Source of the DNA: an uncultured archaeon
GTDB taxonomy: Archaea > Asgardarchaeota > Jordiarchaeia > Jordiarchaeales > Jordiarchaeaceae
Direction of reading: 5' to 3'
DNA length: 11,538 nt
Assembly: GCA_964510585.1 (NCBI GenBank)
Contig: CAZECW010000100.1
Span: 1-11,538, forward strand
This document shows positions 1,332-11,287 of this stretch, piece by piece. Position numbers and translations under genes: made by a program. Numbering within the stretch: the stretch's first letter is position 1; every line of letters begins with the position of its first letter. The notes under the pieces are model-generated. The model saw only the letters and a list, made by a program, of their open reading frames with translations, was not told where the DNA came from and ran no database searches.

Positions 1332-1635
1332 TAACTTAACCTCCTTAGATAAAAATTAAATACACTATAAGTTGAAACCATTTATTTTTTTACCGCTAAA
1401 TATTATAACTATTTCCAATGGCGGGGATGAGAAATTGTTCTATTTCCCCTCCAAAAGGAGCGTTTATAAGGCTTCTTTTTCGATTTAGAACCAAAAAATG
1501 GCGAATAGAACTAAACATTTCTACACTGCCTAGTGGTTGCCTATTGCATAACATATTTCTACTCGTAAGTTCACTAATTAGCCTAAATATGTTAGACAAT
1601 TTAATTGCTAATTCTAGTATTGCGGAGAATTTTCT

Positions 1636-3174
1636 ATGTTTAAAACATCTTTCGACCTTATATTGGATAGAAAAACTACTAAAGAGGATTTGCCCTACGT
1701 AGCCTCCTTATCTTTTGAGGAGTTGGGAAAGCCCAAAGAAGTGATTGTGGGAAAGCCTATTCAGTGTCAGAGATGTGGCGGTGTTTTAACCGATCCCCAA
1801 AGCATTAAAAAGGATCCCAAAATTGGAACACATTTTGTGTGCGCCTTCTGTGGCACATTAAACTTGGTTGACCCCAAAGATTTACCCAGCCACCTAATGG
1901 ACGATGTAGACTTCATCATTGAAGAAGCTATGGAAGTTAAGACCACTAAACCCGAAGTGAAGGGGGAAAATATTGTAGCAGTGATAGATATTTCAGGCTC
2001 TATGGCTGGAGGAAAACTGGAAGCAGTTAAGAGAAGTTTGACAGAAACCATCAAAGACCTTAAGGTCAACGCTCCACAAACCAAATTCGGATTAATCGCT
2101 TTTGAATCCCAAGTATACCTAATCAACTTTAAAGGTGGAAAAGCCCTATCAGTGTCAGGTGATGACCTACACTCACAGGAAAAAGTGGCAGAAAAGTTCA
2201 GTCGAGCAAAGTATGACTTTTTAGCCGTAGAAAAAACAGCAGACAAATGGATAGAAACAGTGTCCAAACTTGAACCAATGGATATGACCGCCCTGGGACC
2301 TGGACTCCTTGGAGGGTACACTCTCCTCAAAATGAGGGGAGGTGGACGCCTACTCCTACTTACAGATGGCTTGGCAAACACGGGATTCGGAAGCCTTGAG
2401 AGCCCAAGCACCACGGGAAAGAATTTTTACAAGGAGGTTGCGGGAAGCTGCAAGTACAGTAACATAATAGTGGACGTGGTGGGAGTACGTGAGGAAGCAG
2501 CTGAGAGCAGATTGGCATTAAAAACCTTAGGAGACTTGGCTCTGGAAACCGGTGGAGACATCTACTACGTAACCATGCAGGAAATTGAGAGAACATTTGC
2601 CGAAATCCGAGGAAAGGGCTACATAGCCCGAGAAGTGGAGGTAAAGATGCTTACTCCACCAAGCCTAAAAATTGTAGATGTAACCGGAACAGCTTATGAA
2701 ATACCGAAACCAGAGGAGCCCATCCGACTAGGAGGGGTGACAGAGGATAGAGAGATTTACTTCGAAATGCAAACCTCCAAAGAATTGAAGGAGGAAGAGG
2801 TTCCAATCCAAGCACAAATCCAGTATGTAGACCCCCAAGGAAGAAGACACCTGAGAGTAGTTACAAAAAAAGTCAAAAAAACTGGAGACGAGAAGCAGTT
2901 TGCAAAAACTTACAATCCCAAAATTGCGGGAGCAATGAGGGTGCAGCAGGCAGGAAGAGCCGCTTACCAAGGCAAAGCAGAAAAAGTCAAGGAAATACTA
3001 GGAGGGTTCCAGAGACAGATAGCGGCAGCCCCCATGGCACCAGAAGCTGGGAATGTCTCCAATGTTCTACAAAGGGAGCTTAACGAATTAGTGGCAAAAG
3101 CTAAATCTGAGGACGAAGCCGCTGTCAAAAGCGCCAAGAAGATAAGAGTTAGCGGAAAGGAACTCTTCAAATAA
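1636..3174 (+). CDS. Sec23/Sec24-like protein: C4 zinc finger + vWA (trunk) domain + beta-sandwich + short helical tail
   Basis: PIQCQRC...FVCAFCGTLN matches the Sec23/24 zinc finger pattern (PxxCxxC-x21-CxxCxxxN). The vWA domain has DISGS, TALGPGL and LLLLTDG. QAQIQYVDPQGRRHLRVVT resembles the Sec23/24 beta-sandwich strand QFxTxYxxxxGxRRxRVxT. The Sec23/24 assignment comes from motif recognition, not a search. Confidence 0.8.
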   Translation: MFKTSFDLILDRKTTKEDLPYVASLSFEELGKPKEVIVGKPIQCQRCGGVLTDPQSIKKDPKIGTHFVCAFCGTLNLVDPKDLPSHLMDDVDFIIEEAMEVKTTKPEVKGENIVAVIDISGSMAGGKLEAVKRSLTETIKDLKVNAPQTKFGLIAFESQVYLINFKGGKALSVSGDDLHSQEKVAEKFSRAKYDFLAVEKTADKWIETVSKLEPMDMTALGPGLLGGYTLLKMRGGGRLLLLTDGLANTGFGSLESPSTTGKNFYKEVAGSCKYSNIIVDVVGVREEAAESRLALKTLGDLALETGGDIYYVTMQEIERTFAEIRGKGYIAREVEVKMLTPPSLKIVDVTGTAYEIPKPEEPIRLGGVTEDREIYFEMQTSKELKEEEVPIQAQIQYVDPQGRRHLRVVTKKVKKTGDEKQFAKTYNPKIAGAMRVQQAGRAAYQGKAEKVKEILGGFQRQIAAAPMAPEAGNVSNVLQRELNELVAKAKSEDEAAVKSAKKIRVSGKELFK

Positions 3175-3234: not shown

Positions 3235-4050
3235 TTAGTCAGTTTTCTTTTTTCTCTCAAGGAATTCTTTCACCCTTATTTTATTCTCTTCGGTCTTGAG
3301 ACACAAGCTTTGCAGTGTCATTTCATAGTCTAATGCTTGCTCCATGTTTAGGTTCAGAGACTCGTTAACAGCTTTCTTTGCAACACCCAATGCTCTGGCG
3401 GGCATTTGTGCCAACTCCTTCGCAAAGCTCATCACCGTGGATTCTAACTCTTCTGGGGGAACAACCCTGTTTACAAGGCCCAGCTGTTCCGCTTCCTTGG
3501 CATCAATTATTCGGCCCGTGAAAAAGAGTTCCTTTGCCTTGTGAATTCCCACTATTCTTGGGAGTAGGTAGCTTCCTCCTCCGTCTGGACCCAGTCCCAC
3601 CCTGATAAAAACTTCTCCGAAACGAGCATTCTCAGAAGCAATCACAATGTCACAAGCAAGAGCTATGTTGCAGGACGCCCCAGTGGCTGGACCGTTTACC
3701 GCCGCGATGATTGGTTTTTCCATGTTCCATATGGTGGAAACTATGGTTTTCACACCCTTCTGGAGTTTTCTTCGAAGCTCCAGGGGGTCAATTTTGTGGT
3801 ACACGTTCTGCATCTGGTTTATGTCTCCACCCGCACTGAAGGCTCGGCCCGCGCCAGTAATTACTATGACCTTGACACTATCATCCTGGTCCAGCTCTCT
3901 TAGTGCGGAGATAATTTCTAGATTCATGGGCTCATATAAAGCGTTTAATGTTTCGGGACGATTCATAGTTATTTTTGCTATGCCATCCATTTTTTCAACA
4001 ATGATGTGGTTGTAGCTAATTTTCTCCACCACCAAAAAGTATTGACACAA
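3235..4050 (-). CDS. Enoyl-CoA hydratase/isomerase (crotonase) family protein, PaaG-like isomerase subtype
   Basis: Crotonase motifs: ITMNRPETLNAL, TGAGRAFSAGGD, KPIIAAVNGPATG and AKELFFTGRIIDAKEAEQLGLVN. Both canonical Glu are absent and GLGPDGG carries the Asp typical of PaaG. The true start may be GTG at 4032 or 4029. Confidence 0.9.
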   Translation of the reverse strand: MCQYFLVVEKISYNHIIVEKMDGIAKITMNRPETLNALYEPMNLEIISALRELDQDDSVKVIVITGAGRAFSAGGDINQMQNVYHKIDPLELRRKLQKGVKTIVSTIWNMEKPIIAAVNGPATGASCNIALACDIVIASENARFGEVFIRVGLGPDGGGSYLLPRIVGIHKAKELFFTGRIIDAKEAEQLGLVNRVVPPEELESTVMSFAKELAQMPARALGVAKKAVNESLNLNMEQALDYEMTLQSLCLKTEENKIRVKEFLERKKKTD

Positions 4051-4084
4051 TCATTTTGAGAAATAATTGTTAAACATATTAATC

Positions 4085-4100
4085 AAACTATGCATAGTTT
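4085..4100. promoter_or_regulatory. Perfect 16-bp palindrome AAACTATGCATAGTTT, candidate transcription-factor operator
   Basis: Exact inverted repeat read from the sequence, lying in the 157-bp gap between the divergent crotonase and ThDP-enzyme genes. Confidence 0.55.
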
Positions 4101-4207
4101 ACTATTTTCAATATTTTGGAAAAGTTTTAATTGGAAATTTTTTGGCGAAGTTTTTAAAACTATAATATTCTTTATTTTAGTTTATAACGCCTTAAAGAGG
4201 TCTTTTT

Positions 4208-5896
4208 ATGGTTCAATTAAATGTGGGTAAAGCAATGGTTGAAATGTTTAAGAGACACAGTGTGGAACATGTTTTCGGACTGGTAGGGACTGCGGTTAGC
4301 AGACTGGTCTACGAGCTGGGTAAGGATGAAAGCATAGACTACATAGTCACCAGACATGAGCAAACGGCGGCAAGTATGGCTGATGGCTATGCAAGAGTTA
4401 CGGGGAAAGTTGGAGTTTGTCAAACAACCGCTGGGCCTGGAACGTTAAATGCTGTTCTAAGTGTGGCAGACGCCTATAAAGATGGATCTCCCATAATTTT
4501 GATAACTGGACAGGTTAGGTCGGACTTCATTGGTAGGGATGTTTTTGACGAAGTGGATCAAATGGCTATTTTCAAGCCTATAACAAAGTGGCAGCAGCGG
4601 ATAATGAAGATCGAGGATGTGCCTCGTATAATATGTAACGCTTTTTATTTGGCTCGAAGTGGTAGACCCGGCCCAGTATTTTTAGAGGTTCCAGAAAATC
4701 TATGGGACGATGTGGGAGAAGTAAACCTAAACTATCAAATTAAAGCCAGTCAGAGGTATGTGGCTTCAAGCATGATTGAGGAAGCTGTAGATCTTCTCCT
4801 AAAAGCGGATTCTCCCCTAATTCTAGCTGGTGCCGGCGTAATGTGGTCTGAAGCTTGGGAAGAACTCAGGATTCTAGCTGAAACTCTTGAAATACCTGTA
4901 GCAACTACGGGCAATGGGAGGGGAGTCATCCCAGAAGATCATCCACTATCAGTGGGTATGGCTGGAAGCTATGGCGGAAAAGGTGCGGCCGATTATGCAC
5001 TGACCAAGGCAGATTTGGTGCTAGCCATCGGCGCAAGTGTCTCTGTAAGCACCATGTACTTCATGAATAATCCCATTACGGGAGAGCTCGTCCACATAAA
5101 CATAGACCCCACAGTTATAGGAAAAAATTATCCTTGCAGGCTGGGAATAGTGGGAGACGCAAAACTGGTACTGTCAGAGATACTAAAGATAATAAAACAA
5201 AAAAAGTTCACCAAGAAAACCGCCCCATGGATTTCAGAGCTAGAAAATAAAAGGAAAGAATGGATGGAAAAGTGGCACACCCAAACCAAGTCAGATGCAG
5301 TGCCCATAAAGCCCCAGAGACTATTAACAGACATGCGAGAAATAATTCCAAGAGACGCCATAATCACAGTGGGTTCAGGCAACCATCACGCCTTTGCAGC
5401 AGAATATTTTCCAGTCTACCATCCCCGCACTCAGATATCAGCTTTTAACTTCGCCGCAATGGCCTTCGCCTTTCCAGCAGCCCTAGGCGCAAAAGTGGCC
5501 AAACCAGACAAACCAGTAATTTGCATAATAGGCGAAGGAGACTTCATGATGACCATTCAAGACTTAGAAACAGCAGTCAGAGAGGAACTAAACGTGGTTT
5601 CAGTAATCCTCAACAATGGATGTTACGGGACCCCCAAACTATTCCAAAAAGCAGTATACGGCGAAGCCTATGGTTGCGACTATGGCAATCCCAGTCTAGC
5701 CAAAATTGCAGAAGTTTTCGGCGCCCGCGGCTGGACTGTGGAACGCCCAAGCGAAATAAAAGACATAGTTAAAGAAGCCTTAAACTGCGGAAAACCAGCC
5801 CTAATCGACGTACCAATAGACCCAAATGAAATAATTCCCATAAACCTAGAAGCACACCTAGGACTATCCAAACTCCCCCAAAAAAGAATAGTTTAA
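4208..5896 (+). CDS. ThDP-dependent enzyme of the acetolactate synthase/decarboxylase superfamily, probably not biosynthetic AHAS
   Basis: RHEQ catalytic Glu (E51), ADGYARVTG, GPG, TGQV and RSGRPGPV motifs, a middle domain with DLVLAIG and HINIDP, and a ThDP motif as GEGD...NN. The three-domain length of 562 aa is typical. Confidence 0.9.
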   Translation: MVQLNVGKAMVEMFKRHSVEHVFGLVGTAVSRLVYELGKDESIDYIVTRHEQTAASMADGYARVTGKVGVCQTTAGPGTLNAVLSVADAYKDGSPIILITGQVRSDFIGRDVFDEVDQMAIFKPITKWQQRIMKIEDVPRIICNAFYLARSGRPGPVFLEVPENLWDDVGEVNLNYQIKASQRYVASSMIEEAVDLLLKADSPLILAGAGVMWSEAWEELRILAETLEIPVATTGNGRGVIPEDHPLSVGMAGSYGGKGAADYALTKADLVLAIGASVSVSTMYFMNNPITGELVHINIDPTVIGKNYPCRLGIVGDAKLVLSEILKIIKQKKFTKKTAPWISELENKRKEWMEKWHTQTKSDAVPIKPQRLLTDMREIIPRDAIITVGSGNHHAFAAEYFPVYHPRTQISAFNFAAMAFAFPAALGAKVAKPDKPVICIIGEGDFMMTIQDLETAVREELNVVSVILNNGCYGTPKLFQKAVYGEAYGCDYGNPSLAKIAEVFGARGWTVERPSEIKDIVKEALNCGKPALIDVPIDPNEIIPINLEAHLGLSKLPQKRIV

Positions 5897-6193
5897 CACC
5901 ATCCCCCATTTTTAACATTAGAATACCCTCCCACATCCAAGGACTCACAGATATATAAAGAGGACGCAATAAATAGGGCAAGAAAAAAATACCAAAAAAT
6001 GCCTGGGGTGGCCCCGCGTCAGAAAATCAAGCCACACTTCTAGAGGATAGGCATAATTCAGTCCCTCTTTCCCAGACAGACATAGAATTTTCATCACTCT
6101 TAGATTTCTCATTTTTCAGGAGAGGGATATAATTGTTCTATGTTTTCCTTAATTAACCCCTTTTTGCAAGTAAAAGAATAAAGGTATTAGGAT

Positions 6194-7480
6194 TTATTTT
6201 TTCTTAAGCCATTGTGTCTTTTTCTCTCTGGGTTCGCCGAAGGGATTCTCATATTTTTCCATGTTTTCGGCAACTTTGAGGTGGGCGGGGACTCCATAAC
6301 CCTGTTCTACTGCTATTGCTCTTAATCTTTCAAGCATACTCGCTACATCTATTCTTCCGGGACACAACTCAATGCAGGCTTTGCATCCAACGCACATAAA
6401 TAGTCCGTTTCTCACAGCAGCCTCAATGCCTTCGGAAAAAGCGCTACGCACAATACCTATGCCTCCCTTAACTGCCTCTGAGCCGTAGGCAAGTCCACCA
6501 GCCAAAACAGCCGTGCAAGCAAAGAAGCATGCACTACAATTTGTGCAGTATAATAGTTCTTCGAATCCAGCATTTTTAGCTCTGGTTCTCCAATCATCGA
6601 CTAGAACTACGTGGACTTCTTGGGCTCCATGCATACCCAACACGTTTATTCCTTGGAGATCTGCTGTTCTTGATGGTCCCTTTATGAAGGATGTGTAGGT
6701 TCCGGTGATTTCTAGGTATTGCTCCATGCTTTTGATGATTGTGGTTGCGCTTTCCCAGTCAGGTACAATTTTGTCTATGCCTGCAACAGCTATGTGTTTG
6801 TCGGCTAGGCGTGTTATTAGGCTGATGTTTCCCTCATTCTCTATTAATCCTATTATGCCGTCTTCGGCTCCTATGGCGTTTGCTCCTGTGAGACAGATTT
6901 TGCCCTGTAGCATTTTTTCGCGCATGTTAGCACGGGCTGCTTGGCGTATGGGTTCGAAGTCGGGCTTTACTTCGTATCCGACTTCTTTGGTGAAAACTTC
7001 TGCAACCTTGGTGAGTGGGATGTGTACTCCTGGGCCGACTGGGAGGCTTGGTTCTTCGCCGCTGAGCTGTATTATTCGGTCTCCTAGGTCGGTTTCGATT
7101 ACTTTTATTCCTTTTTCTTCTAGGGCTTTTATTATTCCGCACTCCTTAGCGGTGGTGGATTTGGATTTTGTGATTAGGTCGACACCCTCGGTTTCCTTTA
7201 ATACGTATTTTTTGGCGTCTTCTGCGGTTTTGGCGAGGAATACTTGACAGTTGTTTTTCTCAAGGTTTTCTTTGGCGATCTTTACCAGCTGGTCCAGATT
7301 TTTAATGGAGTATTCTTTTATTTGTCTGTACTTTTCGCTGAGCTTTTTTAGTTTGGGCATTTTCTTCATTATCTGCTCATACTTGAAGTTTAGTCCGAAC
7401 TCGAAGAAATCCATGACTGGCTTGTTTTGAACTGCTTTCTTTATCCTTTCTTGAACATATGTGTGGGCTTCTTTTGACAT
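6194..7480 (-). CDS. LUD-domain (LutB/LldF-like) Fe-S oxidoreductase subunit with C-terminal 2x[4Fe-4S]
   Basis: KSKS, ETDLGDRIIQL, TGAN, ENEGN and GPSRTAD..GMHG motifs, plus ferredoxin motifs CTNCSACFFACT and CVGCKACIELCP. SD GAGGTG (7492-7487) lies 6 nt before ATG 7480, favouring that start over GTG 7489. Confidence 0.88.
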   Translation of the reverse strand: MSKEAHTYVQERIKKAVQNKPVMDFFEFGLNFKYEQIMKKMPKLKKLSEKYRQIKEYSIKNLDQLVKIAKENLEKNNCQVFLAKTAEDAKKYVLKETEGVDLITKSKSTTAKECGIIKALEEKGIKVIETDLGDRIIQLSGEEPSLPVGPGVHIPLTKVAEVFTKEVGYEVKPDFEPIRQAARANMREKMLQGKICLTGANAIGAEDGIIGLIENEGNISLITRLADKHIAVAGIDKIVPDWESATTIIKSMEQYLEITGTYTSFIKGPSRTADLQGINVLGMHGAQEVHVVLVDDWRTRAKNAGFEELLYCTNCSACFFACTAVLAGGLAYGSEAVKGGIGIVRSAFSEGIEAAVRNGLFMCVGCKACIELCPGRIDVASMLERLRAIAVEQGYGVPAHLKVAENMEKYENPFGEPREKKTQWLKKK

Positions 7481-7490
7481 TTCTTGCACC

Positions 7491-8210
7491 TCAACTTATG
7501 GCTTTCCAAACTATTTCTGGCAGATCCAGGACCTCAACATCAACTTTCATTCGCTCCGCGGCGTTTGCCAAGGATAGGTTGCAGAATGGACAGGTGGTGA
7601 CCAGAATTTTTCCCTGTTGTCTTAATACGTCGCTTATCCTTTTTTCGCTTGAGCGTTCAGTGTTTTCGCGGTAAGCAGACATCACGCCTCCACCGGCTCC
7701 ACAGCACTTCGCATCTTCTCTTGAGCGAATTAAATCGAAGAACTCTATTCCTGGTATCGCCCTAATAACTTCCCGGGGCTCATCATACACTCCACAGTGC
7801 CTTGCTAGGTGGCATGGGTCATGATAAGTCACCTTCAGGGGAAGGGAGTTCTTGAAAACCAGCTTTCCTCCGTCCTTTAATTCTTTTAGAAATTGTGAAA
7901 TATGTTTTACTTCCAGGTTAAAGCTGGGCTCAATGTTGGGATAGTCACAGGTGAAAGCTCTGTAGCACCCCGGACAGAAGGTTAAAATTTTATCAACTCC
8001 CTTGGATTTGAAGTATTCCCAGTTTTTGTGCACTCTTTTTTTGGCGGCTTCTAATTGCCCGGTTCTAAAGAGGAAACCTCCACAGCAGGGCTCGTCATTC
8101 AAAATTTTGTATGCGACGCCACACTTGTCAAGAATATTTTTTGTGGTGGTAACTATGTTTGGCCTGCGATAAGGGGACATACAACCCATATAAAGAATAG
8201 TCTCTCCCAT
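7491..8210 (-). CDS. Two-CCG-domain Fe-S protein (LutA/GlcF/HdrD C-terminal-like)
   Basis: Two cysteine-rich CCG domains: GC..EPCCGG..CPGC and HDPCH..CCGAGGG..CPFC. Its stop codon overlaps the SD of the next gene, indicating an operon. Confidence 0.9.
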   Translation of the reverse strand: MGETILYMGCMSPYRRPNIVTTTKNILDKCGVAYKILNDEPCCGGFLFRTGQLEAAKKRVHKNWEYFKSKGVDKILTFCPGCYRAFTCDYPNIEPSFNLEVKHISQFLKELKDGGKLVFKNSLPLKVTYHDPCHLARHCGVYDEPREVIRAIPGIEFFDLIRSREDAKCCGAGGGVMSAYRENTERSSEKRISDVLRQQGKILVTTCPFCNLSLANAAERMKVDVEVLDLPEIVWKAIS

Positions 8211-8565
8211 ACTTATCCCGCATAAGGTTTATACCAAAATTATATTCAAGATAAATAATTTAGAATATATGTATTTCCACCAAAAAAGGGAGGATTCTGG
8301 TGGAGGTTAAATAGTCTAATATGGTATGGAGGGAGGAAATGAACGCTCTCTAAATAAATTTCATCTTGGCTGTTTTGATATTACTCCGCTGTTACGAGGA
8401 TAGCATATAAACTTAAGAAGAAAGTAAACATTAAAATGTTGGGCTTGAACTACTATAAAAATCCTTTAAAAATATTTGTTCACAGAAGTGTAAGGGTGCA
8501 TAAAGATTATAAGGGCGCGAATCAAATTTTATAGCATAAATACAAAATTATGATGAGGGCGGAAG

Positions 8566-8829
8566 ATGTTGACAAAAACCATATTTCAAAACTTAACCGA
8601 ATTGTTAAACCGCATAGACGAGGGGAAAACAGAAGACATACATAAATGTCTAGAACGTTGCTGGAAGGAATTCTACATACTGGAAAAAGATCCCGACATC
8701 CCAAGTGAAGACTTCCAAAAAATGAGAAAATTATTAGAGGAAATAACAGTAGCCATAGAAGCCTACGAGGCTGGAGCAATCACCGTAAAAGAATTCAACA
8801 GAATAAAAATCAAAGTCTTTGAAGAATAA
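8566..8829 (+). CDS. Small helical hypothetical protein with SHOCT-like C-terminus
   Basis: 87-codon ATG ORF preceded by GAGGGCGG. Amphipathic helices, ending in AYEAGAITVKEFNRIKIKVF. Confidence 0.7.
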   Translation: MLTKTIFQNLTELLNRIDEGKTEDIHKCLERCWKEFYILEKDPDIPSEDFQKMRKLLEEITVAIEAYEAGAITVKEFNRIKIKVFEE

Positions 8830-8893
8830 AAGACAGCATCCACCATACAAATCCATAAACATAAATAGCTAGTTAAAATAAAAAATAGGTGGT

Positions 8894-9976
8894 TCATTTA
8901 GTCTTGTATTTTTGTATGGCTTCCCAGTCCAATTCCACACCCAAACCCGGCTCTTGGGGTACAACAGCGTATCCGTCCTCAAGCTTTATCGGTGTTTTAA
9001 GAAGGTAGAATTCGTCGGGGTAAAAGGGAAACTCCATCCAATCTGAATTGTAACTTGAGGCAATCACGTGGATATTTGCCGCCATTATAAGTCCGAAGCC
9101 GAAAATGTGGGGGATTGCACGCACACCGAAAGCCTCGGCTAAAGCGCAGATTTTTTTCACTTGCAGTATCCCCCCGCTTCTGGTGGCGTCTGGCTGAATT
9201 ATGTCATACGCCTCAGCCTCCAGAATCTCTCTGAATCGACGTAACCCGAAATCGTTTTCTCCGCCAGCTATTTCCACATTGGATCTGGCGCGGAGTTCTG
9301 ATAGTCCTCTCAGATTATCAGAGGGTAGGGGTTCCTCCAGCCAAATAACGTCGTAGGTTTCGCAAATGTTTGCCAGCTCAGCCGCTTCTTTAACTGATTC
9401 GTAGGCAGAGTTAGCGTCGACCATGATTCCCAGGTCCGGGTATTCTTCCCTAACTGCCTTAATTATTTCTTCGTCCTTGGCGAGGCCTTCCCCGATTCTG
9501 AGTTTTACTGCTTTAAACCCCTTTTGAACCGCTGCTTTAGCCATACCCACGGCCGCTTTTGGGGCCAGGGCGAAGGCGAAACTGGCATAGGCTTTAATCT
9601 TGTCCCGGTAGCCTCCCAGCAGTTTGTAAACTGGTTTTTTTAGGCTTTTGCCAATGATGTCCCATAATGCTACCTCAACTGCACTTATGGATTGCCCCAC
9701 CCCGAACAGAATTCTCCAGCTGTTGTTGTACATTTCCCTCCAAATGTCTTCAATCATGAAGGGATCCTTACCCACAACCATTTTTGATAGTGCGCCCTCG
9801 ATGAATTTTACCTGGACCTCATCACTGAGTGAAAAGTGGCTCAAACCGTAGCCCTCAATTCCCTCATCCGTTTTAACCGTCACCAGAGTTCCCGAAGCAT
9901 TGATGCGGGGCATCGAACCGATCTTAATGCTAAAAGGAAGCTTCAACACCTCAGCTTTAACTTCTGTAACTTTCAT
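8894..9976 (-). CDS. Enolase-superfamily, mandelate racemase subgroup enzyme (probable acid-sugar dehydratase/cycloisomerase)
   Basis: N-terminal capping motif (SAVEVALWDIIGK..KPVYKLLGG), KLR at beta-2, metal ligands DAN / EEP / GGEN, Asp (QPD) / His (IPH) dyad and final Glu (MEF). SD GGAGTG upstream favours ATG 9976 over TTG 9994. Confidence 0.92.
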   Translation of the reverse strand: MKVTEVKAEVLKLPFSIKIGSMPRINASGTLVTVKTDEGIEGYGLSHFSLSDEVQVKFIEGALSKMVVGKDPFMIEDIWREMYNNSWRILFGVGQSISAVEVALWDIIGKSLKKPVYKLLGGYRDKIKAYASFAFALAPKAAVGMAKAAVQKGFKAVKLRIGEGLAKDEEIIKAVREEYPDLGIMVDANSAYESVKEAAELANICETYDVIWLEEPLPSDNLRGLSELRARSNVEIAGGENDFGLRRFREILEAEAYDIIQPDATRSGGILQVKKICALAEAFGVRAIPHIFGFGLIMAANIHVIASSYNSDWMEFPFYPDEFYLLKTPIKLEDGYAVVPQEPGLGVELDWEAIQKYKTK

Positions 9977-10022
9977 CTCAACTAACACTCCCAAGTTTTA
10001 AACATAATAAACACTCTTCCCA

Positions 10023-10528: not shown

Positions 10529-11287
10529 ATGAGCAACTCAATTACTGCTGGAGTTTTTGGGGCTGTAGTAGGTTTAGTGTCAACCATTGTGGGAATTTTA
10601 TGGAGCCTTCAGTACTACGCTCTCGCTTCCCTACACCAGACTGCAGTTACAATTCAGAACCTACTATACGTTTTTGGAGAATATACATTCTTTATTGGCT
10701 TTTTCCACACACTCCAACTGAACGGTGTCATAAGCGGCTTCTTGGGAGTTACGGCTGTTCTCTGTATACTATTGCTTATAACACTGATTCTGGTGGGCTT
10801 GGGACTCTATGGAATCGGCAAAATAGAAGGAAAAACCATGGGTACGGCTAGCCTGGTGATTGGAATCATTGGAGCCATCTTAACCCTACTACTATTAATT
10901 TCAGGGGTATCGGCAGGAGGCACCACACACACCCTAACCTCAATTTGGGTACTTATGAATTTAAATTGGATCATTTCTATGCCTCTTAACCCGGGAAAAA
11001 TTATGTTCCTCGTCCTTATGAGTGGCGTACCTAACGTTAGCACTTCCATCCTGTGGTTAGGTCTTCTCGTGTTGGGAATAACAATAATCATCTTTGGAGC
11101 TGCATTCATTATAATGAGGGATTCAGTGGGCAGTCCGGGACTTGCTGTGGCGGCGGGAGTACTCTACATTATCGGTGGGATATTCTTGTTCGCAGGAGTT
11201 CTAGTTCCATGGCTAGCATTCATTATCCTCTTCGTAAGCTTCATAATGTCAGCCCTAATTTTCTTCCAGTCAAGAGAACAAGCCTAA
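10529..11287 (+). CDS. Multi-pass membrane protein of unknown function (about 6-7 TM; possibly DUF973/DUF996-like)
   Basis: 252 aa, nearly all hydrophobic and Gly-rich helices. GTGAGG SD 4 nt before ATG and a downstream T-tract. The family suggestion is tentative. Confidence 0.8.
   Translation: MSNSITAGVFGAVVGLVSTIVGILWSLQYYALASLHQTAVTIQNLLYVFGEYTFFIGFFHTLQLNGVISGFLGVTAVLCILLLITLILVGLGLYGIGKIEGKTMGTASLVIGIIGAILTLLLLISGVSAGGTTHTLTSIWVLMNLNWIISMPLNPGKIMFLVLMSGVPNVSTSILWLGLLVLGITIIIFGAAFIIMRDSVGSPGLAVAAGVLYIIGGIFLFAGVLVPWLAFIILFVSFIMSALIFFQSREQA

Follow-up and report, generated by a model that had tools for sequence, protein, structure and literature searches.

A Sec23/24-like protein of the Freyarchaeum lineage and its kinship with eukaryotic cpRas1-like proteins

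Background

In the COPII coat, Sec23 binds the small GTPase Sar1, and the gelsolin-like domain of Sec23 carries the arginine finger for its GTPase-activating protein (GAP) activity on Sar1. Homologues of Sec23/24 are said to have been first reported in Thorarchaeota in 2017. The subject of this paper is one such homologue, encoded at positions 1636..3174 (+) of an 11,538-nucleotide (nt) stretch of DNA, here called the window, from an uncultured Asgard archaeon of the Freyarchaeum lineage (contig CAZECW010000100.1 of assembly GCA_964510585.1). An original prediction on this DNA had read the gene as a compact archaeal protein of the Sec23/Sec24 type.

The closest described proteins are themselves archaeal. 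PMC11914678 (Nat Commun 2025) reports Asgard 'Sec23-like proteins lacking gelsolin' in which all other Sec23 domains are kept, matches them to Sec23 with Foldseek, and proposes them as precursors of the inner coat. The family is thus already described, and the gene presented here adds a Freyarchaeum member to it. Like the proteins described there, the protein is Asgard-encoded, falls in the range of about 510-560 amino acids (aa), has zinc finger, trunk, sandwich and helical domain in Sec23 order and is gelsolin-free; Sec23/24 is also the best PDB fold match in both cases. It differs in belonging to the genus Freyarchaeum, in its hot-spring origin and in being annotated as 'VWA domain-containing protein'. 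[quoted passage not shown]

ArnAB has been presented as an archaeal counterpart of the Sec23/24 core in which ArnB bears the MIDAS and ArnA contributes the finger in trans; ArnB holds a metal ion with the same five MIDAS positions (PMC12852372). In eukaryotes, the cpRAS-VWA and 'solo' proteins were described by Elias & Novotny in 2008, putative finger included (PMC2430557). A full-text literature search found no paper that ties these cpRas1-like or zinc finger-von Willebrand factor A (ZnF-vWA) proteins to Asgard proteins.

Family identity and domain architecture

Membership of the gene in the Asgard Sec23/24-like family is virtually certain from its identity and architecture. Taken as a whole, the results are quite likely best explained by a cytosolic member of that family which is the archaeal counterpart of the cpRas1-like and Sec24/23 proteins and a GTPase-coupled adaptor.

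Three Pfam domains had been named in the original prediction. Two of them, Sec23_trunk (38.3 bits, cut-off 27, aa 116-312) and Sec23_BS (35.4 bits, cut-off 33.5, aa 333-413), are found above their cut-offs in the 512-aa protein, and both match 28/28 of the diverse Asgard homologues that make up the Asgard profile and alignment. The third, zf-Sec23_Sec24, stays below its cut-off of 25 in this protein (13.7 bits, aa 41-79) and matches 22/28 family members at E<=0.1. Sec23_helical and Gelsolin match neither this protein nor any of the 28, Pfam shows no GTPase domain in the 512 aa, and a search of NCBIfam found no family for the protein. Across the 28 homologues the four Cys, the MIDAS set (D118, S120, S122, T218, D244), Q392, D399, G402 and R407 are invariant. 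The four-cysteine (C4), DxSGSM, TALGP and TDG..N signatures are likewise invariant in the eukaryotic alignment, which holds 30 cores of cpRas1-like / ZnF-vWA proteins. Judged from these alignments, the C4, MIDAS and hairpin motifs are not a product of chance.

The likeness to Sec23/24 is faint in pairwise comparison, with 15-18% sequence identity and a marginal Sec24 match (E ~0.9) when the single sequence is searched against PDB. With the Asgard profile, yeast Sec24 gives E 2.8e-13 along positions 62-474 of the profile, a span that begins in the latter half of the finger and takes in the helical domain; human Sec24A follows at E 7e-12, ArnB of 8S05 at E 3.7e-10 and Sec23A at E 0.003. The profile alignment with Sec24 displays common CxxC pairs, DxSxS and ALGPAL motifs and an RxRV hairpin, and the second Cys pair aligns with that of yeast Sec24. 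It can also be seen that the TDG of the MIDAS is replaced in yeast Sec24, whereas the archaeal protein retains the MIDAS Asp.

The predicted fold points in the same direction. The AlphaFold2 model built with the 28-homologue alignment has a mean predicted local distance difference test score (pLDDT) of 89.1 and a predicted TM score (pTM) of 0.89, and only residues 100-108 are uncertain. A Foldseek search of PDB ranks 46 chains of Sec23 or Sec24 ahead of everything else (E 3e-29 to 3e-21; TM by query 0.68-0.78), followed by ArnAB (8S05), an actinobacterial vWA protein (4FX5) and an ArnB paralogue (5A8J). Superposition with VIA, which is independent of Foldseek, places 477/512 residues on residues 559-1115 of the Sec24B chain (Z 28.4, root-mean-square deviation 4.2) and 480 residues on residues 16-617 of Sec23A (Z 26.9); Sec24C gives Z 27.4, and ArnB (8s05_B) gives Z 25.8 over 348 residues. 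Against Sec24 and Sec23 (PDB 1M2V, 1M2O, 3EH1, 2NUP) the order and fold are alike from the N-terminal strands to the helical domain, with Z 25.6-28.4 over 477-484 residues. By these results the finger, trunk, sandwich and helical domain all superpose on Sec23/24. Pfam and the fold together give the domain order N-terminal strands, zinc finger, vWA trunk, beta-sandwich and helical domain. The Sec23/24-like identity that had been proposed for this gene, with the vWA domain and the QAQIQYVDPQGRRHLRVVT strand in Sec23/24 order, is borne out by Pfam, the model and the superposition alike.

An ordinary prokaryotic vWA protein of the YfbK, BatA or ChlD kind, working in adhesion or as a chelatase-type subunit and resembling Sec23/24 through the shared vWA fold only, is hardly credible. 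Public annotation does read 'VWA domain-containing protein' or 'Mg-chelatase subunit ChlD', the Pfam VWA model scores 35.8 bits, and inter-alpha-trypsin-inhibitor heavy chains (ITIH) match the MIDAS segment. However, the generic VWA models cover only about 50 residues round the MIDAS loop, and ITIH and BatB match the MIDAS segment only, whereas the finger, sandwich and helical domains match Sec23/24 too. No signal peptide or hydrophobic segment was found in the 512 aa, which argues against an exported or anchored vWA protein; from its sequence, the protein is soluble and cytosolic. Also, instead of nesting among bacterial YfbK/VIT-like proteins, the outcome that the original prediction had set against its own reading, the gene finds its best relatives among Asgard archaea and then among eukaryotes.

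Extent of the protein and its parts

The gene (1636..3174, +) is complete: a single open reading frame (ORF) that encodes 512 aa without internal stops, its own stop codon included in the coordinates. A GGAG at 1624..1627 (+), a putative ribosome-binding site by sequence reading, lies 8 nt 5' of the ATG, and homologues share the N-terminal MFKTSF motif; the start codon is therefore regarded as sound.

The N-terminal beta-strands, aa 1-40 (1636..1755, +), complete the beta-sandwich as in Sec23/24, according to the model and the VIA alignments. The strands are E2-4, E8-10, E21-26 and E35-38, P20 and F27 are invariant among the 28 homologues, and the alignments to Sec24B and Sec23A begin at residue 1 of the protein. 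The C4 zinc finger follows at aa 41-79 (1756..1872, +), recognised by its invariant Cys and by Pfam in relatives. Its cysteines C44, C47, C69 and C72 lie at 1765-1851, as the original prediction had placed them, and are invariant in all 28 Asgard and 30 eukaryotic relatives. A variable linker of low confidence, aa 100-108 (1933..1959, +), is the only place where pLDDT drops below 50, and its length differs across the family.

The vWA or Sec23-24 trunk domain, aa 109-328 (1960..2619, +), is covered by Pfam Sec23_trunk and VWA. Within it, on the same strand, invariance and the model define the MIDAS as D118-x-S120-x-S122 (1987-2001), T218 (2287-2289) and D244 (2365-2367), at canonical places that follow strand E112-118, precede helix H220 and follow strand E237-243. 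The beta-sandwich domain, aa 329-416 (2620..2883, +; Pfam Sec23_BS), contains the conserved hairpin QAQIQYVDPQGRRHLRVVT, residues 392-410 (2809-2865, +), which the profile alignment pairs with the equivalent Sec24 hairpin. The protein ends with a C-terminal helical domain, aa 417-512 (2884..3171, +), modelled as helices H419-510 with pLDDT ~90; this domain is basic (isoelectric point, pI, 9.8). The C-termini of the family carry lineage-specific tails after a conserved S-x-K-x-L-F motif (alignment columns 580-618). In the Loki/Hermod-type clade these tails are polybasic (KKRMEKKKK-type), and the Thor/Odin-type clades have acidic ones (EDDEEE-type). The present protein ends in KELFK without a further tail. 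Such tails may have a bearing on membrane or partner binding.

In comparison with Sec24 and Sec23 the protein is about 250-500 residues shorter. On its own side the alignment runs to residue 512, while on the other it ends at residue 617 of 765 in Sec23A; the remainder of the Sec23A and Sec24B chains is presumably the gelsolin-like domain. The archaeal protein ends after the helical domain in the model and has no gelsolin-like domain; it therefore has no Sec23 arginine finger, and with it no GAP module. No longer Asgard form was found among the representatives. A search for longer or fused forms and for Sec24 with the Asgard and eukaryotic profiles, one that loses true relatives, returned one ITIH-like and two cpRas-type proteins. 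A homodimer prediction with two copies of residues 1-495 and the family alignment, run without controls, scored 0.00 and speaks neither for nor against a dimer.

Kinship with cpRas1-like and ZnF-vWA proteins

The closest eukaryotic sequences are not Sec23 or Sec24. A phmmer search covering 1.8 billion representative sequences returned about 45 Asgard-type proteins at E<1e-30 and a large second tier of eukaryotic proteins of 500-1100 aa at E 1e-34 to 1e-23, compared to ~0.9 for Sec24 in PDB. In this tier are a nemertean 'circularly permutated Ras protein 1-like', one protein from an annelid, transcripts of amoebozoans and choanoflagellates, and VWFA proteins of Entamoeba. By Pfam, many of them combine Ras, zf-Sec23_Sec24, Sec23_trunk and Sec23_BS, and most retain the C4 finger and DxSxS. 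The Asgard hidden Markov model spans them at profile positions ~22-525 of 536 with 150-226 bits, and they likewise end just after the helical domain. Profile comparison with hhalign aligns the 30-core eukaryotic alignment with the Asgard profile over 477 columns (probability 100, E 1.8e-79). The likeness to the ZnF-vWA part of cpRas1-like proteins, which the original prediction had raised as an alternative, thus turns out to be the strongest eukaryotic one.

The two groups have in common a gelsolin-less layout of C4 finger, MIDAS vWA, sandwich and terminal helical domain, with ~27-30% identity and the same invariant motifs. Unlike the cpRAS-VWA type, the present protein is archaeal and carries neither a circularly permuted Ras domain at its N-terminus nor any further extension, and so resembles the 'solo' type, such as the Entamoeba VWFA proteins. 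Additional modules occur in two metagenomic relatives of the eukaryotic ZnF-vWA proteins: in P0255 (1089 aa), Kelch and ankyrin repeats come after the vWA core, and P0277 has 1113 aa.

An unrooted maximum-likelihood tree was built from 95 cores (47 Asgard-tier and 48 eukaryote-tier rows), in which most of the eukaryote rows are labelled so because they share a clade with named ones. The tiers are split by one fully supported (100%) branch, with the protein on the Asgard side. There it falls in a fully supported 4-row clade with three close homologues from Freyarchaeota- and Lokiarchaeia-labelled metagenome-assembled genomes (MAGs). The nearest proteins to this clade by path are of Helarchaeota type, and the wider grouping is without support.

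Against PDB sequences, the eukaryotic profile gives Sec24A 69 bits, Sec23A 32 bits and ArnB 21 bits, and the Asgard profile gives the same targets 48-53, 20 and 42 bits. This gradient of similarity, from ArnB through the Asgard family and the eukaryotic ZnF-vWA proteins to Sec24/23, consists of scores against PDB sequences rather than a phylogeny, and fits a single Asgard-type ancestor of both eukaryotic families. On these sequence comparisons, we somewhat favour the view that the Asgard family is the archaeal counterpart of the cpRas1-like and solo ZnF-vWA proteins, its closest eukaryotic relatives, and of the more diverged Sec24/Sec23.

Members and distribution of the Asgard family

The closest relative of the protein, at 93% identity, comes from a Freyarchaeota MAG, and Freyarchaeum deiterrae and its kin follow at 72-78%. 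Relatives at 36-50% identity are found in Hel-, Loki-, Thor-, Odin-, Hermod- and Hodarchaeota. The lengths of these relatives are 510-570 aa, and for most the public annotation reads just 'VWA domain-containing protein'. The gene sequence was also found in several hot-spring metagenomes. For one Asgard-type member, P0129 (536 aa), the deposited source is a 'Candidatus Eremiobacterota bacterium' MAG, a label that probably stems from a binning error and does not mark a bacterial homologue.

The gene is single-copy in its own genome (3.78 Mb, 96% complete), unlike the Sec23/Sec24 pair. When 201 genomes were sampled from the phylum, with f-numbers denoting families within the sample, 71/201 had the gene, and its distribution is very patchy. 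It occurs in 5/5 genomes of its own family, 40/43 of f7, 13/19 of f12 and 4/5 of f16, and in 3/41 of f9, 0/21 of f5 and 0/5 of f2, the sister family in the same order.

Roadblock-GTPase cluster

Small GTPases are the only neighbour class common to several families. In f7, a Thorarchaeota-type clade of the protein tree, 24/25 loci from 17 genera have a fixed arrangement, one of the 24 ending at a contig end. On one strand lie the Sec23/24-like gene, a LAMTOR5-like Roadblock gene, a MAPKK1_Int/LAMTOR3-like Roadblock gene, a GTPase gene and a further Roadblock gene, with short gaps after the first gene, and a divergent small Roadblock-like gene is located upstream of the Sec23/24-like gene (loci L012:7432-11721, L014:5269-9956, L050-L065, L078-L081 and L084-L087). 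The GTPase of the cluster has ~190 aa and scores 54 bits with the Arf model. Elsewhere, one f9 genome has a GTPase of this type directly upstream of the Sec23/24-like gene, Rab-like GTPases lie within two genes of it (<=2) in two other lineages, and Roadblock genes flank it in two more. The Roadblock-GTPase cluster with a Sec23/24-like gene was not found in the literature searched and could appear beyond that search.

The genome under study has such a module as well, at contig C60:20853-23451 (locus L093:2276-5021) beside SMC, as in Thor-type loci. It consists of Roadblock, GTPase, Roadblock, Roadblock and divergent Roadblock genes, is syntenic with the Thor-type cluster and is without a Sec23/24-like gene. 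Its GTPase (C60:21258-21848) shares 62% identity with that of the Thor cluster, and small GTPases give ~24 matches in the genome as a whole.

These neighbours bear on the possibility that the protein is an ArnB-like signalling scaffold, with an ArnA-type finger fused in cis and a helical domain whose phosphorylation partners would read. Such a scaffold would regulate motility or metabolism and take no part in membrane traffic. The resemblance to ArnB/ArnE and ArnA of Sulfolobus acidocaldarius (PDB 8S05, 5A8J) comprises MIDAS vWA, beta-sandwich and helical bundle, with the finger on the same face; neither ArnB nor the Asgard protein has a gelsolin domain. ArnB is a top structural match (Foldseek E 5e-17, besides the VIA result above) and scores better with the Asgard profile than Sec23A does. 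The five MIDAS residues are the same, and the ArnA finger docks at the Sec23/24 finger site (PMC12852372). However, the finger is in cis here, whereas ArnA supplies it in trans and carries a forkhead-associated (FHA) domain. Over the full length, with the cis finger included, Sec24/Sec23 match better (477-486 aligned residues against 348). No ArnA-like, FHA, Ser/Thr kinase or phosphatase gene stands in the window or beside the gene in the loci of 49 relatives (9 public contigs and 40 genome regions), a genome-wide partner search not having been made; the neighbours that recur encode Roadblock proteins and GTPases, and the closest eukaryotic sequence relatives are GTPase-fused. A scaffold of the ArnB kind is thus considered unlikely.

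Proposed mechanism

A small-GTPase-coupled adaptor, rather than a GAP, is proposed tentatively as what the protein probably is, with somewhat less than even confidence in the mechanism. The coupling to a small GTPase is drawn from the f7 operon, from the Ras-family GTPase fusion in the closest eukaryotic relatives and from the Sec23-Sar1 pairing in COPII; GAP activity by the Sec23 mechanism is not expected because the gelsolin domain and arginine finger are absent. In such an adaptor the C4 finger would be structural, and a partner would be caught by one of its acidic residues on a cation bound at the MIDAS. The trunk and helical face would be contacted by a small GTPase in its GTP-bound state, for which Roadblock (MglB/LAMTOR-like) proteins would provide regulation in trans, as they do in MglA/MglB or Ragulator. 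Within the same genome, the Roadblock-GTPase module on C60 would be the leading candidate for a partner.

Several points weigh against this adaptor. To our knowledge, no ligand of the MIDAS site has been reported. No GTPase or Roadblock gene lies in the window or beside the gene in loci of the Freyarchaeum lineage. The cluster GTPase is near-universal, in 148/201 genomes of the phylum as compared to 71/201 for the patchy Sec23/24-like gene, and at E<=1e-45 it is found in 0/41 f9 genomes, while 3/41 carry the Sec23/24-like gene. Because these distributions differ, the two genes are no obligate or exclusive pair, and because the GTPase is far commoner, their co-occurrence is uninformative. Gene order within one family may also partly reflect shared descent. 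The tree covers the Asgard and eukaryote tiers, and the order among the Asgard family, the cpRas1-like proteins and Sec23/24 is suggested by similarity scores. According to PMC11914678, three Asgard Sec23-like proteins bound an Asgard Arf only weakly in yeast, as judged by co-precipitation and regardless of nucleotide state, and Sar1-contact residues are missing in the Asgard proteins. The GTPase used in that work was other than the cluster GTPase, and the partner question is therefore retestable with a defined candidate.

The same binding data touch on the stronger claim of a true proto-COPII coat, a direct orthologue of the Sec23/24 ancestor that, together with an Arf/Sar-like GTPase, would already form polymers on membranes and thereby bend these or select cargo. 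PMC11914678 argues for inner-coat precursors, and the Sec23/24 fold over five of six domains, the basic helical domain, the polybasic tails of some clades and the many small-GTPase matches in the genome would suit a coat. The reported weak, nucleotide-insensitive binding and the missing Sar1 contacts stand on the other side, together with the absence of the gelsolin domain and arginine finger. Moreover, a Sec23-Sec24-type heterodimer would be impossible with the one copy present. By alignment, yeast Sec24 has lost part of the MIDAS, and its retention in the archaeal protein points to another mode of binding; the patchy distribution extends to complete absence from the sister family f2, and the closest eukaryotic relatives are not coat proteins. 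A coat in this sense is therefore improbable. The 'minimal proto-coat module' of the original prediction had been offered there as an inference, and by the present analysis such a module would have neither gelsolin domain nor arginine finger.

A more specific form of the GTPase-coupled adaptor is possible, although rather doubtful. The protein would be an effector or adaptor of a conserved Asgard Roadblock-GTPase module, operonic in the Thor-type family and unlinked here. The cpRas1-like/ZnF-vWA proteins would be its direct descendants, and Sec23/24 would be a diverged branch in which gelsolin was gained later.

Genes of the window

The neighbours of the Sec23/24-like gene in the window are ordinary metabolic genes, and no small GTPase, longin/TRAPP or beta-propeller gene is found in it, as had been noted originally. 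Downstream are an enoyl-CoA hydratase (3235-4050, -), an acetolactate-synthase-type thiamine pyrophosphate enzyme (4208-5896, +), a LutB-like LUD/4Fe-4S protein (6194-7489, -) that abuts a LutA-like CCG protein (7491-8210, -), and an enolase-superfamily sugar-acid dehydratase (8894-9994, -). This block, 3235-9994, has the same order in locus L018 of the Freyarchaeum lineage, and the synteny of the window recurs only in that lineage. Two ORFs, of 189 aa (221-790, +) and 252 aa (10529-11287, +), have no Pfam or NCBIfam family. At the place of the former, loci L010 and L018 of the same lineage have an unannotated gene (200 and 184 aa) upstream of the hexapeptide gene; the likeness is one of size and position. 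No tRNA or Rfam element was found in the window.

Upstream of the Sec23/24-like gene lies a gamma-carbonic-anhydrase-like hexapeptide gene. Its product has a weak Pfam hit to dynactin subunit 5 and was for this reason considered as a possible eukaryote-like partner, but rejected: it is of the gamma-carbonic-anhydrase/PaaY type, scores below the DCTN5 cut-off and is kept in the Freyarchaeum lineage only.

Implications

Among the hallmarks of the secretory pathway in eukaryotes is Sec23/24, and the role of its Asgard relatives bears on eukaryogenesis. The findings offer two handles on this role. The first is a eukaryotic sister family, the cpRas1-like/ZnF-vWA proteins, which are gelsolin-less, MIDAS-bearing and GTPase-fused. 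The second is a candidate partner set of one highly conserved GTPase and four Roadblock proteins, co-clustered in 17 genera of one family and found in the protein's own genome too. If the protein is indeed an adaptor of this Roadblock-GTPase module, the GTPase-plus-adaptor logic of COPII would be older than eukaryotes, with the GAP and guanine nucleotide exchange factor functions provided in trans by Roadblock proteins.

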